This document shows, piece by piece, positions 1-58,620 of a stretch of DNA of 64,000 bases. Origin of the DNA: Eledone cirrhosa (taxonomy: Eukaryota); NCBI GenBank assembly GCA_964016885.1, contig OZ024745.1, positions 63,054,001 through 63,118,000 on the forward strand. The letters run 5' to 3'. Below the pieces are notes generated by a model, which did not search any database, was not told the origin of the DNA, and saw only the letters and a list, made by a program, of their open reading frames with translations. Position 1 is the first letter of the stretch. Every line of letters begins with the position of its first letter. The position numbers were made by a program, and so were the translations under genes.

Positions 1-497
1 ACAGTGTTTAGGCAACCACGTCACCTTTTTGTTCAACACTGACACGGGAACGATGTGCTAGTTTCAAGCTTATTAGCCATCGTCAGCATCGTATACCTTC
101 CTGCCAGATGGTTGAACGTCTGAAAGTATATACTTTCCTTTCGCATATTAACGGCTGAGCAGCCTAATTTGCATATCGAGTGAGTTCAGTCGGCCGGGCG
201 CACCGAAAACGATAAATGGAATAGATTGAAACGAAATTTCATTTCTCACTCTTAGTACGACACTTACTTAAATGTAAGTATGTATGTATGTATATGTACA
301 TACATATATGTATACAGACGTACAATAGTATGTATATATATACATACATGGACACATATATATATGCACGTATCGGTTTACCGAACATTTATTATAATGC
401 TCGGTTTGTTTGTTTGTAAACAAACAAACAGCCCGAATTAAGTAAGTGCCCTGCTAAGAGTGAGAAATGAAATTTCGGTTCATTCTATTCCATTTAT
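1..497 (-). mobile_element. Family A hammerhead-bearing repeat (older diverged copy, cut by window start) with short inverted tip at ~438-497
   Basis: Same sequence as the 49953-52006 monomer; switches orientation at ~438 and ends in (TA)n at 497. Confidence 0.85.
51..91 (-). ncRNA. Type I hammerhead motif, family A (U16.1>C, probably inactive)
   Basis: Reverse complement reads CGATG-CTGACGA-TGGCT AATA AGCTT-GAAA-CTAG-CA-CATCG. Confidence 0.75.
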
Positions 498-530
498 ATA
501 TATATATATATATATATATATATATATATA

Positions 531-1382
531 GTAATAATAATAATTTTGAAGACTAAAATCCAAAGAGGGCTCGATAAGGATGAATATATATCAAATATAT
601 AAGAACCGTAGAGCAAATATCTAATAAAATAACAGATTAAAGTTTAAGCTAAAAATCGGTGCTTTCACCCTGAAACTAAGGTTATCGAACCAACCTATCA
701 ACCGGAGATTTATAATAAATTGAAGTGAAAATCAACAGGTGAGTGTGTTTTTAATAGCAACATGACCCTCCCAAAGTATAACAATATATATATATATATA
801 CATAAATATATTTATATATATATATATATATATATATATATATATATATATATATATATAACAGAATAAAGTTTAAGCAAAGAGTCGGTGCGATTCTTTG
901 CTTAAACTTTAATCTGTTATTTTAATAAATATTTGCTCCACTGTTCTCTTATATATTTGATATATCTTTATCCTTATCGAGCCCTCTTTGGATTTTAGTC
1001 TTCAAACTTATTATTATTACTATATATATATATATATATATATATATATATATATATATATATATATATATATATATATATATATATTTATGTATATATA
1101 TATATATATATATATATATATATCATTATTGTTATACTTTGGGAGGGTCAGGTTGCCAATAAAAACACACTCACCTGTTGGTTTTCACTTCAATTTATTA
1201 TAAATCTCCGGTTGGTAGGTTGGTTCGATACCCTTAGTTTCAGGGTGAAAGCAGCGATTCTTTGCTTAAACTTTAACCTGTTATTTTATTAGGTATTTGC
1301 TCTACGGTTCTTATATATTTGATATATATTCATCCTTATCGAGCCCTCTTGGGATTTTAGTCTTCAAATTTATTATTATTAC
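531..1382. repeat. Three pieces of a ~255 bp repeat (531-785 forward; 861-1020 and 1125-1382 reverse) separated by (TA)n
   Basis: 1125-1382 is the reverse complement of 531-785; the end motif TGACCCTCCCAAAGTATAACAA is shared with family H (45900-45921). Confidence 0.85.
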
Positions 1383-2379
1383 TATATATATATATATATA
1401 TATATATATATATTTGTTTATTTATTTAATTATGCAGATGTGCACGTGTATGCGTACCTATCTCTGCCAGAGGGTTCTATGTGCTACAGGTAAAATATGT
1501 TTCTATATGTTACATATCTTCACCAGCATGGAAATATTCCAGAAGGTGGACGTGGGATCCATCTAACACCGTTTGAATTTTATTACCAAACCCTATAGTT
1601 TTTTAGTGATGGTGGTACTAATAATGTTAATGTTGTTTGTACGTTACTGGCAAATCCTCACAGGAAATTTTATCGTTCTTGTGTTAAAATATCTCTAGCA
1701 AAATGTAAATATGATTATTTCACATTGATGGGGGCAACATATTTGGATGAAGGGTAAACGCTTAGTTTCCTGCAAGTCTCTTTATTTGTGAGTTTCTAGG
1801 AGATCGATTACATTGATATAAGTTCGAAGAGCTTGCTGCAGTTATCACGTATCATTTTTTTCTGATTCAAGAACTTGACTGCCTGCATTGATGGCGCAAT
1901 TTTCTTCTAAGAAAATTCTAATTGTCACCAAAAATAACACGAAATTCGCCTGCAATGGTCACTTAAATTCTTAAAGAGGCATTATTTTGAAATCTTTTGA
2001 GAAGGGATTTTCGGATAAAGATTCATGTTTAACAGACTGGAAATATACAATGAACCACTCACATAGGCGGCTTCCATTTTAACACGTCATCGCGTCAATC
2101 TTCTACGTGTGTTACACATGTTAAGGGAGTACAGCTTACACCAAGAGCCGATTCCATAGTGCAAATCATCATCAGGGTAGTTGGTCTCAGATAGGTAGAC
2201 AAGCTACCCTGACATGGAAGCATAATAATGTGGTCTGTTTTTATTTGAACAGTTGTATAAATCAAAATTTTAAAATTTAACAATAAGTTCCCACAGATAA
2301 GGTTTCCAATTAAAAGGCGGTATTTGAATTTAGCTTACACTTTACATATTAGATAACATCACACCCACATATACATACA

Positions 2380-2985
2380 TACATGGTGGCTGCCAACTCG
2401 TTTTCGAGTACGGACACTACTTTATATCCATGTAGGAGAACCCCTACCGATGCGCTGAACGAGTGTGACTTTTTAGTCCAGCCAGCGACTTGAAATCTCT
2501 GGTACAAACACTACACTTGTGACAATTATTGACACATAGTGCTAGGCCCATGGTACCATGTGACGACAAGTGCAGAGATATCTCCAGATATAAAGCAATG
2601 CCATTGCCTTGAAGCTTTTATAGTGGGCAAAGGCACTGCACAAAGCCAGTCCCACTCTCTTAACCAATATGATATTTACCAAAAAGAAGAACAAGTCAAC
2701 ATCATTGGATACCATCAGGGTTGCAGGTATCAGAGTTTTCCTTCTCCTAGAATTCTGCCTTGACAAAGGCTAAGGGGTCATCTCTCCCGGTGATTTTGGA
2801 TGGCCATTGACTCTTAAGAGTTCCTTTGCCCTTTGACAGGTTTTGTTTTTAGTCCTGCAGGATGTCCAATTTCACCCTCCTCACCAAGAAACCTTGGTGG
2901 GGTTGCCAGTTTAGTGGCCAACGACCATGAGACAGGTTGTGCTGGGATACATGTTACCAGTAGCACCAACTGGTGACCTGACATA
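2380..2985 (-). mobile_element. Internally deleted RTE-like LINE derivative (5' UTR-like part plus C-terminal zinc finger)
   Basis: Minus strand encodes CSVCTRDFKSLAGLKSHTRSAH (C2H2) near 2450-2520; flanked by (ACAT)n on both sides. Confidence 0.5.
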
Positions 2986-55897: not shown

Positions 55898-56447
55898 TAT
55901 ATATATTGTTATATATATATATATATATATATATATATATACATATATATAATGAGATAGATAGATAGAGAGAGAGAGAGAGAGCGTGAGAGGGAGGGAG
56001 ACAGAGGGGAGGGACAGAGAGAGGAGCGTGAGAGGTGAGGTAGAGAAATAGAAAAATATAGATAAGTGTGTGTGTGTCGAATGAAAGAGTATATTGTTTT
56101 GGATGATGGACACAATATTAAGTTGAAGACATCTAAATTTGTTATATCAATAAATCTAATTTTGAGGGCGATCATTTTTATAGACAACTTAATTTAGTTC
56201 AAATGGCTAAACTATATTTCTCAAATACAAATTATCATATATATGTCTAAAAATATTACCGTGGAAAATACCGAGGATAATTATTCCTCTTAATTTTTAA
56301 CGTACTGTGGTGAGATGTACTGTCATTAATGCGTCGAAACATCAGAGAACCATGGCAGACACCCGAAAAGGGGGAATTTTCCTTATGTTTGTGTTTCTCT
56401 TACGTTTTCTAAATAATATTTATTAGTAACCTCATATATATATATAT

Positions 56448-56855
56448 ATTTGTTTTGCGAGGTTTTTGATATGAAATCGTGTGTTGAAACAAATATTGTT
56501 ATACTTGGGGAGGGTCATATTGTTGTAATAATATTGCCAGAATTAATAACAGAACACACTCACTGTTTGGTTGGTTTTCGCTTCTGTATCTTTTATATCA
56601 GTTAATTTATTCGGTCCTCAATGTTTACCATTGACTGACCAACGGTCAAAAAATACTGATATAATATAGACACAAACACATATATGTAAATAAGCAGATT
56701 AAATAAAGATGGCGTAGATATACAATACTACAGCAGGAACATAATAACACCACTGACGATGTTGCAGATGTGCAAAGAAAGAACTTTGTTAGACTATATA
56801 TATGTGTTTGTGTCTATATTATATCTGTATTTTTTTACCGTTGGTCAGTCAACAA
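56448..56855. mobile_element. Second family H tail-out module; hammerhead-like motif at 56744-56791 (plus)
   Basis: Homologous to 45445-45765; inverted right arm; (TA)n at both ends. Confidence 0.75.
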
Positions 56856-57104
56856 TATATATATATATATATATATATATATATATATATATATATATAT
56901 ATATATATATATATATATATAAATATATATATATATATATATATGTAAATACGGTATGTATGTATATATATGTATATACATATATATATAATTATCTCTT
57001 GTGTTCTATACACATACATATACATACACACACATTAATATATATATATATATATATATATATATATATATATATATATATATATATATATATGTGTGTG
57101 TGTG

Positions 57105-58620
57105 TGGATGTATATATAATGTATTTTGCAATACACTTTATGCTTAATTAAAAGCATTTTGAAGACCGTAAGCTATTGTTTTAAAGTAGTGACAAATTCA
57201 CTTACTTTGATCTCAGCAAACAGGGGAGATAAGCCGACAAGTCTTGTTTCGCTTTGGTTGAAGCTTATCAAGGCCAACTACCCCTCCTGTCTACCGAGAT
57301 CACTGATGTTATATTCTTATAGAAATCTAGTAAATAATCAGGAGCTGATTATGCAGAGCGGTTGTTGGTCAGGCAGAAATTAAAAAATAGAATTGGAGCT
57401 CTGAAATAGCAATATATATATGGATGTATATATAATGTATTTTGCAATACACTTTATGCTTAATTAAAAGCATTTTGAAGACCGTAAGCTATTGTTTTAA
57501 AGTAGTGACAAATTCACTTACTTTGATCTCAGCAAACAGAGGAGATAAGCCGACAAGTCTTGTTTCGCTTTGGTTGAAGCTTATCAAGGCCAACTACCCC
57601 TCCTGTTTACCGAGATCACTGATGTTATATTCTTATAGAAATCTAGTAAATAATCAGGAGCTGATTATGCAGAGCGGTTGTTGGTCAGGCAGAAATTAAA
57701 AATTAGAATTGGAGCTCTGAAATAGCAATATATATATATATGGATGTATATATAATGTATTTTGCAATACCCTTTATGCTTAATTAAAAGCATTTTGAAG
57801 ACCGTAAGCTATTGTTTTAAAGTAGTGACAAATTCACTTACTTTGATCTCAGCAAACAGGGGAGATAAGCCGACAAGTCTTGTTTCGCTTTGGTTGAAGC
57901 TTATCAAGGCCAACTACCCCTCCTGTCTACCGAGATCACTGATGTTATATTCTTATAGAAATCTAGTAAATAATCAGGAGCTTCTAATTTTAATTTCTGC
58001 CTGACCAACAACCGCTCTGCATAATCAGCTCCTGATTATTTACTAGATTTCTATGAGAATATAACATCAGTGATCTCGGTAGACAGGAGGGGTAGTTGGC
58101 CTTGATAAGCTTCAACCAAAGCGAAACAAGACTTGTCGGCTTATCTCCCCTGTTTGCTGAGATCAAAGTAAGTAAATTTGTCACTACTTTAAAACAATAG
58201 CTTACGGTCTTCAAAATGCTTTTAATTAAGCATAAAGTGTATTGCAAAATACATTATATATACATCCATATATATATATTGCTATTTCAGAGCTCCAATT
58301 GTAATTTTTAATTTCTGCCTGACCAACAACCGCTGTGCATAATCAGCTCCTGATTATTTACTAGATTTCTATAAGAATATAACATCAATGATCTCGGTAG
58401 ACAGGAGGGGTAGTTGGCCTTGATAAGCTTCAACCAAAGCGAAACAAGACTTGTCGGCTTATCTCCCCTGTTTGCTGAGATCAAAGTAAGTGAATTTGTC
58501 ACTACTTTAAAACAATAGCTTACGGTCTTCAAAATGCTTTTAATTAAGCATAAAGTGTATTGCAAAATACATTATATATACATCCATATATATATTGCTA
58601 TTTCAGAGCTCCAATTCTAA
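57105..58620. mobile_element. Family C: ~316-320 bp inverted tandem array (2.7 + 2 units, junction ~57982)
   Basis: Repeated 85 aa pseudo-ORF at 57126/57442/57762 (+) and 58247/58565 (-); microsatellite-bounded. Confidence 0.93.
57232..58459. ncRNA. Five family C hammerheads with U3-A8 core (minus: 57232, 57548, 57868; plus: 58098, 58416)
   Basis: GGCC-TTGATAA-GCTT CAACCA AAGC-GAAA-CAA GAC TTG-TC-GGCT. Confidence 0.8.

Follow-up and report, generated by a model that had tools for sequence, protein, structure and literature searches.

Two-armed insertions of hammerhead retrozymes at (TA)n runs in Eledone cirrhosa fit the footprint of Hydra-type Penelope-like elements

Which enzyme moves the retrozymes of animals, short non-coding tandem elements with a hammerhead ribozyme in each unit, is a question left open in the available text of a published account of them (PMC7229834), and the accessible part of a second study leaves open how Penelope-like elements (PLEs) make tandem and inverted inserts with a tail (PMC8557442). 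Both questions are raised by a stretch of the Eledone cirrhosa genome (GenBank assembly GCA_964016885.1, contig OZ024745.1, positions 63,054,001 to 63,118,000 of the forward strand), called here the window, which comprises 64 kb within a 3.0-Gb genome of 1,796 contigs. The window is AT-rich and dense in (TA)n runs, and the sole named protein relative found was from Argonauta hians (40% identical). Three of its repeat families, A, B and C, are inserted as pairs of back-to-back arms between (TA)n runs. We propose that they probably borrow the protein of a Hydra-type PLE, which would use two sites on a single RNA, circular or multimeric, to prime both strands of the target.

An earlier note on this DNA had described about 37 type I hammerhead motifs in eight repeat families, taken as non-autonomous retrozymes. 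The hammerhead observation was confirmed as real, and a similarity inventory reproduced the total as 36 whole motifs and one half (A, 9; B, 15; C, 5; D, 2; E, 1; F, 1; H, 2; Hydra-type PLE, one whole motif and one 3′ half), 29 of them belonging to A, B and C. The full structure that the note had ascribed to each motif was found in 27 of the 37 (B, 15; A, 6; C, 5; F, 1) by a strict type I scan that demands a 3-8 pair, stem II, GAAA, stem III, UH and stem I. The comparison with shuffled controls that the note had suggested came out in its favor, since the same scan of 100 block-wise dinucleotide shuffles gave a mean of 0.25 and a maximum of 2 matches. The ten motifs that failed were the three damaged copies among the nine of A (at 49-93, 46250 and 48795), both D motifs, whose stems I and III are weak, the window copy of E (genomic copies pass), two minimal and decayed H motifs, the Hydra motif and the Hydra half copy. 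A variant of the scan permitting a long stem II gained the Hydra motif at 45140.

The tandem retrozymes are limited to A, B and C, which are non-coding, non-autonomous and dispersed. Their units measure 316-318 bp (C), 466 bp (B) and 468-476 bp (A), the GC content over the arrays is low (28-38% in 2-kb blocks, below 50%), and the only frames of at least 120 amino acids over the arrays are microsatellite-type or antisense read-throughs. Exact motif matches numbered 11,574 for A, 1,633 for B and 185 for C genome-wide, with none for reversed controls, and the first 100 positional matches of B formed 28 clusters. Short tandem units, a type I hammerhead per unit, lack of coding capacity, low GC and dispersal are the sequence-level features of non-LTR (long terminal repeat) retrozymes, and A, B and C have them all. 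The count of eight such families was reduced accordingly: D, E and H are 3′ ends of longer elements and lack the short tandem units, F is probably another such end, and A and B are homologous to each other (62.6% over 326 nt, E 1e-21). Neither was the idea of a window-wide system borne out, the copies being independent insertions of abundant families. Closeness to PLE relics, which had been taken as evidence, proved uninformative: with one Hydra-type protein query, 3.0 Gb of sequence gave 63,569 first-look candidates, a spacing of about 47 kb at which most windows can be expected to contain one.

What had been missed is the architecture of the insertions. Many loci consist of two arms joined 5′-to-5′, with both 3′ ends at (TA)n, so that it is the whole two-armed insertion, and not each monomer as previously described, that is bounded by (TA)n. 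The B locus of the window illustrates this arrangement. Its left arm (34070..39410, minus strand) holds 11.5 units of 466 bp with 11 hammerheads and stops in a short 3′ end, at phase 228 from the cleavage site, that abuts the (TA)n run at 34059-34070. The right arm (39410..41492, plus strand) is joined to it 5′-to-5′ at 39410, holds 4.5 units of two alternating haplotypes with 4 hammerheads, and stops in a long 3′ end at phase 302 that also abuts (TA)n. The 74 nt between the two fixed 3′ ends (41419..41492, plus strand) are referred to here as the tail, which can fold into a 13-bp hairpin (two copies gave z -3.2 and -3.6). The C locus (57105..58621) has a minus arm with the short end (57105-57982) and a plus arm with the long end (57988-58621), built of 316-318-bp units with five hammerheads.

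Family A occupies four loci. The fullest, at 49953..52007, has a minus arm with the short end and a plus arm with the long end in units of 468-476 bp, and hammerheads at 50230 and 50706 (minus) and at 51193 and 51661 (plus). The locus at 45976..47141 has a short-ended minus arm and a long-ended plus arm of two units, with hammerheads near 46258 (damaged by G8A) and at 46758. At 1..497, a minus arm (1-439) that runs on to the left of the window, with a hammerhead at 49-93 (minus) damaged at U16.1, faces a plus arm (438-497) with the long end. An older variant at 48580..49258 (minus) is a single arm of about 1.5 units with the short end and hammerheads at 48832 (damaged) and 49252 (minus).

The same arrangement was found genome-wide. 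Each family has two fixed 3′ ends, both away from the ribozyme cut; of 51 B arms, 23 end at phase 302 and 23 at 228 or 233. The two-armed B set (n=21) comprised the window locus and 20 loci obtained through a genome-wide positional list of exact motif matches. Arms shorter than 100 nt or below 88% identity, redundant or edge-cut loci (L009, L013, L015, L082) and one-arm loci were dropped before counting. A long end was paired with a short end in 20 of 21 B loci (one broken), 19 of 25 C loci (two short/short, four broken), 11 of 12 A loci, 6 of 7 D loci and all 15 loci of the Hydra-type PLE, whose tail measures 137 nt; these were left of 31 examined after the exclusion of 16 in which the two outer ends were not both visible. 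Pooled, 71 of 80 inserts were long/short, two were short/short, none was long/long and seven were broken. The 3′ ends abutted (TA)n in 43 of 48 cases for B and 44 of 60 for C, compared with 5.3% of window positions, and the 5′ ends did so in 4 of 50 and 4 of 65. Tail lengths across families ranged from about 30 to 137 nt, and one of two copies of the A tail folds into a strong hairpin. Loose (AT)n ends at the same B phases were present in contigs of the public run X1, which may be the assembly's own sample; the contigs of all four public runs compared here are of unrecorded kind.

The inverted, 5′-truncated copy, the tail at one end only and the microsatellite target displayed by A, B and C together form the insertion signature of PLEs. 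The earlier interpretation held in part: the footprint points to PLE machinery with much greater specificity than the note had argued, and of the two PLE relics in the window only the Hydra type leaves it. The Hydra-type relic (43271..45327) is itself two-armed, with a minus arm at 43271-43552 (long end, 137-nt tail) and a plus arm at 43560-45327 (short end). Its GIY-YIG part (43560-44111) is 95.7% identical to residues 647-830 of P0001, an intact single open reading frame (ORF) of 830 amino acids at locus L132, in which a reverse transcriptase (RT) like that of telomerase is followed by a C-terminal GIY-YIG domain (YIG motif read from the sequence). A structure model of P0001 (predicted local distance difference test score 80.7) had telomerase RTs as its top fold matches; searches of Pfam and of PDB sequences gave no matches. 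P0001 has the motifs RWR, DKT, a CxCx5C linker and CxxC plus CxH near the C end, and it lacks CCHH; RWx, DKT and the linker are kept in its alignment consensus. The Hydra-clade list, in the available part of PMC8557442, gives RWK in place of RWR. By motifs and domain order, P0001 and the window relic are assigned as putative Hydra-type PLEs.

The other relic (52085..54471, minus strand) is of the Neptune type, and its RT region (52528-53934) is 47.7% identical to a long-ORF relative. The long-ORF relatives carry Neptune-clade marks (a DKG motif, a CX2-5CxxC linker and a CCHH-type endonuclease), and a minimal hammerhead is a further mark of the clade found here. No inverted second arm was found in 36 Neptune-type loci (L174-L209), which are single-armed with one fixed end and often have the 5′ end directly at (TA)n. 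Opposite-strand neighbours within 7 kb, counted from the first 100 positional matches per family, gave divergent-to-convergent counts of 18:0 in B, 14:2 in A, 17:0 in the Hydra type and 0:0 in the Neptune type (Fisher p 9e-7 between the last two), and all fetched loci with matches on two strands were divergent (B, 22 of 22; C, 26 of 26). Divergent neighbours and paired ends in the Hydra type and the lack of a second arm in the Neptune type mean that the footprint fits the Hydra type and not the sampled Neptune type, a comparison that covered these two types. So two TA-targeting PLE clades of one genome complete integration differently. We consider it very probable that PLE machinery moves A, B and C, and likely that the driver is of the Hydra type rather than another PLE.

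The sequence differences between arms bear on the template. B arms diverged by a median of 0.6% within a locus and 2.3% between loci, and 20 of 21 loci were closer within; rare variants were common to both arms at 13 of the 21. At L055, no variants were found across the 3,750 nt of both arms. At L062 and in the window, unit-specific variants stand in register in both arms, which indicates that some templates were dimers or multimers. In the long arms of L054 and L064, stretches were duplicated locally at a later time. A simple fold-back is excluded by 6 of 20 B and 4 of 19 C loci, where neither arm lies within the other. The 5′ junctions were scattered along the entire monomer and did not accumulate at the cleavage site, so copying does not halt at the ribozyme cut, a result that the choice of the B set by intact motif favours. 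Microhomology of at least 2 nt was present at 14 of 25 C junctions, compared with 18% expected (p 2e-5). Taken together, the two arms of an insert are likely to derive from one RNA, and we lean slightly towards a circular form of that template.

Three further observations were made at junctions. A slight excess of 5′ junctions lies 11-20 nt past the cut (B, 4 of 42; C, 5 of 50), noticed post hoc and unused here. Locus L158 (5685-6568) is an A/C chimera in which an A minus arm with the short end accompanies an A plus piece fused to a C piece that supplies the long end; it arose either by a template switch or by later deletion. At L152 (1679-1694) and L153 (7911-7958), two of the 38 C loci fetched, C arms are joined 5′-to-5′ to Hydra-type ORF pieces, and the two joins are only suggestive, involving different and partly decayed Hydra families.

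The hammerheads of A, B and C are, judging from their sequences, in all likelihood of a functional type. The 15 B cores are canonical, U3-A8 replaces C3-G8 in C, and A carries a U10.1-U11.1 mismatch; stem III is very short in A and B. Both changes are natural variants on record (in the available text of PMC3088659), and palindromic helix III with action as a dimer is on record for PLE hammerheads (PMC4209133, likewise in part), where helices of this kind are described as favouring cleavage as a dimer. The families here share these features with the hammerheads of the two reports, from which the Hydra motif of the window differs by a 105-nt insert in stem II. This motif (45130..45272, plus strand) has a palindromic stem III, a 9-bp stem I and a predicted cut after 45263, and its copy at 43461 (minus) is the 3′ half only. 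Covariation of the stems, another check suggested beforehand, was observed: among ten motifs of A, B and a relative, 9 of 15 pairs are altered on both sides, the covariation score was attained by none of 500 shuffles, and sliding the pairs lowered pairing from 89% to 29-47%. We take this as support and not as a p-value, since the structure was drawn from the same sequences, which are related. A compensatory stem II change was seen in single contigs of runs X4 and X6. Further hammerhead families in the fetched loci each have their own palindromic stem III, and the Hydra-type motif was found with both C3-G8 and U3-A8; at L033 (549) and L052 (2427), relatives of the window Hydra hammerhead retain the long stem and switch C3-G8 to U3-A8.

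These features can be arranged in one pathway. Tandem A, B and C arrays would be transcribed, and the hammerheads, probably acting as dimers through the palindromic stem III, would release monomers that can circularise, as retrozymes of other animals self-cleave and circularise (available text of PMC7229834). The PLE protein would bind the RNA at or near the tail (30-75 nt) and cut both strands of a (TA)n run, the target into which Hydra elements insert (PMC8557442). Two complementary DNAs (cDNAs) may be primed, one at the downstream and the other at the upstream edge of the tail; the ends are observed, and the priming is the presumed step. For a purified PLE protein, cutting and extension of both strands, with starts at two internal sites bracketing the tail, have been described (PMC11167929, in the part available). 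On the same RNA, circular or multimeric and uncleaved, both cDNAs would then extend 5′-ward past the ribozyme site through differing numbers of turns, and their free ends would be joined, often through 1-6 nt of microhomology. This would yield an insert of back-to-back arms, one with the long and the other with the short 3′ end, and long arms may be reshaped afterwards by local duplication.

Several points weigh against this reading. Two C loci are short/short. Because the B loci were located by an intact hammerhead, arms crossing the cut site are favoured among them; the C, A and D loci are top-scoring matches, and most two-armed Hydra loci were picked for matches on both strands. Folding gave no strong hairpin in the tails of C, D, E and Hydra. 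C arms are too uniform to show sharing (16 of 25 closer within; medians 1.6% and 1.8%), and microhomology is not enriched at B junctions (4 of 21, p 0.49), a count that is blurred by mismatches to the family consensus and on which we do not rely. As for the ribozymes, the hammerhead is not significantly more conserved than the rest within B (3 versus 66 shared variants, p 0.07), the Rfam model HH9 scores B copies at 37-39 bits (at least 14 among the 150 listed of 295 matches), under its gathering score of 52, and by free energy single motifs fold no better than shuffles (z -0.3 to -1.6), with the long-stem Hydra motif as the exception (z -5.8). In the accessible part of PMC11167929, ribozyme cleavage is dispensable in vitro and start sites are alike between strands, and one of nine predicted frog retrozyme dimers cleaved in the available text of a preprint (bioRxiv 10.64898/2026.07.22.740005). 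A comparison of A, B and C with the pseudo-LTRs (pLTRs) of the PLEs sampled (one Hydra, 20 Neptune-type loci) returned low-complexity matches only.

The dispensability of cleavage is also the starting point of a first alternative, in which a PLE primes at two sites on an uncleaved linear read-through of the donor array, the hammerheads being passengers or slow cutters and circles having no part in mobility. Ribozyme mutants had no effect on insertion in vitro (PMC11167929, same part), the in-register unit variants of L062 and the window require some multimeric templates, and the A mismatch and the very short stem III of A and B fit slow cutters or passengers. However, the young loci L055, L074 and L081 have locus-specific variants in every unit of both arms, the mark of repeated copying of one monomer, for which a linear donor would need prior homogeneity, and the stems covary between families. 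We regard a purely linear template as possible but, on balance, doubtful.

A second alternative retains the mechanism and changes the driver, which would be another PLE clade, either Naiad or an unsampled Neptune or Poseidon family. A, B and C share no sequence with the sampled Hydra pLTR, and the Hydra ORF pieces to which two C arms are joined belong to two different Hydra families. In the available text of PMC8557442, Naiads target (TA)n, leave tailed inserts, tandem as well as inverted, and have been recorded from cephalopods, which counts for this alternative and against a Hydra-type driver; the same text describes them as without canonical hammerheads. The sampled Neptune type is single-armed with one fixed end, whereas all features recur in the Hydra type, which is abundant and for which an intact 830-aa frame exists. 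Another clade as the driver is, in our judgment, unlikely.

The identity between arms could also have arisen if they came from two RNAs held in one protein complex, or if they were homogenised later by gene conversion, a process that inverted repeats can undergo. The L158 chimera and the L152 and L153 joins imply that different RNAs can share one insert, and C gives no haplotype signal. Nonetheless, two RNAs drawn from a family of at least 1,633 copies with a 2.3% spread should seldom share rare variants, as 13 of 21 B loci do, and separate RNAs alone fail to explain why a long end is so strictly paired with a short one; conversion would have had little time to act in arrays with 0-0.15% private changes. 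This origin of the arms appears improbable. Much the same identity, together with the inverted geometry, would follow if the second arm were a fold-back copy of the first cDNA (a DNA hairpin or a template switch onto itself), and one arm does fit within the other in most loci. The non-nested loci (6 of 20 B, 4 of 19 C) and the fact that the longer arm can be either the long-end or the short-end one largely refute this, and we give it very little weight. A last alternative, that the arrays are ordinary satellite DNA or that the assembly folded back on itself, with hammerhead-like motifs arising by chance, to which the poor folding of single motifs and the duplicated long arms of L054 and L064 might point, is scarcely credible and is refuted for motifs and dispersal by 27 matches versus 0.25 in shuffles, thousands of dispersed exact matches with none in controls, and inserts whose two ends and flanks differ and whose ends recur in the X1 contigs (possibly the same sample).

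The element class is known, and neither it nor the ribozymes are new; the footprint on retrozymes, the end pairing and the sharing of haplotypes between arms are new mechanistic evidence. With the metazoan non-LTR retrozymes of PMC7229834, as far as its available text goes, A, B and C share tandem units that are short, AT-rich and non-coding, each with a single type I hammerhead, and many dispersed loci. PLEs were already proposed there in 2020 as the mobiliser; the words 'inverted', 'microsatellite' and 'octopus' do not occur in that text, which does not settle priming or driver, whereas the inserts described here are two-armed, lie in (TA)n and have two fixed ends. The A and B units (466-476 bp) are slightly above the 150-450 bp given there, and RNA circles and cleavage were demonstrated in that work, while the present families are known from sequence alone. 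A dependence of retrozymes on PLEs is likewise the conclusion of the frog preprint, in the part available, which argues from co-occurrence and pLTR homology and inclines towards local amplification in tandem. Our link is instead an insertion footprint that separates two PLE clades, with no pLTR homology found in the PLEs sampled.

The build itself resembles that of Hydra-clade elements and further PLEs in Craig et al. 2021 (PMC8557442, available text), which share the inverted 5′-truncated copy, the tail at one end only and the (TA)n targets. There it is described in autonomous elements, with tails of 30-40 bp ascribed to endonuclease resolution; here it is on non-coding retrozymes, tails span about 30 to 137 nt, and long/short pairing was counted. 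With Poseidon_Ac in vitro (Frangieh et al. 2024, PMC11167929), the families share two start sites bracketing the tail and priming independent of the ribozyme cut. The accessible part of that report gives no difference in start site between strands, and neither end pairing nor non-autonomous templates; the genomic pairing implies that the two starts are coupled, one per strand. We found no account of two-armed or cephalopod retrozymes, of strict long/short pairing or of haplotype sharing between arms in the literature covered, which left out most subscription papers, Dfam and Repbase.

Other observations concern the retrozymes and their relatives. A further 310-bp tandem family with divergent arms (L165:2006-4001 and L019:1743-2330) has a C-like backbone (73% over about 145 nt) and an A/B-like hammerhead with a different palindromic stem III; it either links the A/B and C groups or shows ribozyme exchange. 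At L087 (645-3181), a two-armed A insert is nested in another at the internal TA-rich run of a unit, and each has a long and a short end. Single contigs of runs X5 and X6, labelled organisms B and C, cover most of the B monomer at 95-99% identity and low depth.

Among the 3′ ends of longer elements, the D arms run past 500 bp without a tandem repeat. D locus 1 (45411..45924) is two-armed with long and short ends and a weak hammerhead at 45685-45735 (minus), and D locus 2 (56434..56852) has a weak hammerhead at about 56741-56790 (plus). Inverted copies of another repeat family lie between (TA)n at 531-783, 861-1020 and 1123-1382 and have a 29-nt 3′ end in common with D; no hammerhead was found within the inverted pair at 531-1382. 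E (42260..42632, plus) has its hammerhead at 42541, exceeds 1.2 kb in other loci and has a Hydra-like ORF upstream in L134. In F (14081..14188, plus), known from short 3′-end copies only, (TA)n follows about 45 nt after the hammerhead at 14091. H forms the 3′ end of a Neptune-type PLE: copy 1 (22774..22966, plus) carries the minimal decayed hammerhead at 22864, and copy 2 (about 52165-52210, minus) lies in the 3′ end of the Neptune-type relic.

Elsewhere in the window, a Pfam search of ten frames named only a broken Helitron-type PIF1 helicase region at 28761-30442 (PF05970, E 8e-59). From the look of their translations, we take 18967-20314 (plus) to be a frameshifted RT relic like that of a long interspersed nuclear element and 55127-55558 (minus) to be a mariner-like transposase relic, neither of which Pfam named. 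An exact 254-bp direct duplication (16752-17005 and 17234-17487) adjoins (TA)n runs, and an AT-rich element with long inverted repeats at 17700-18020 resembles by eye a miniature inverted-repeat transposable element. At 32613-34064, beside the B array, a unit of about 560 bp occurs in tandem and inverted copies, in which no hammerhead passed the scans. Rfam microRNA matches in the window were all below gathering scores and were rejected as microsatellite or palindrome artefacts.

The families supply start sites at base level, a short non-coding template (316-468 nt) and a candidate intact enzyme of the same genome, and so bring both questions posed at the outset within reach of a single in vitro assay. 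The genomic pairing of a long with a short end and the haplotype shared by the arms go beyond the published in vitro result. As a more tentative extension, one ribonucleoprotein on one RNA circle might prime both strands at the tail edges, the two RTs chasing each other round by strand displacement before the cDNAs are end-joined. If this were true, the PLE tail, the inverted copy and the tandem arrays would be explained in one step, and Hydra-clade proteins would be rolling-circle RNA-to-DNA writers aimed at (TA)n that act in trans on unrelated small RNAs. Genome engineers would take an interest in a compact RT-endonuclease able to write a small RNA as tandem copies into (TA)n.

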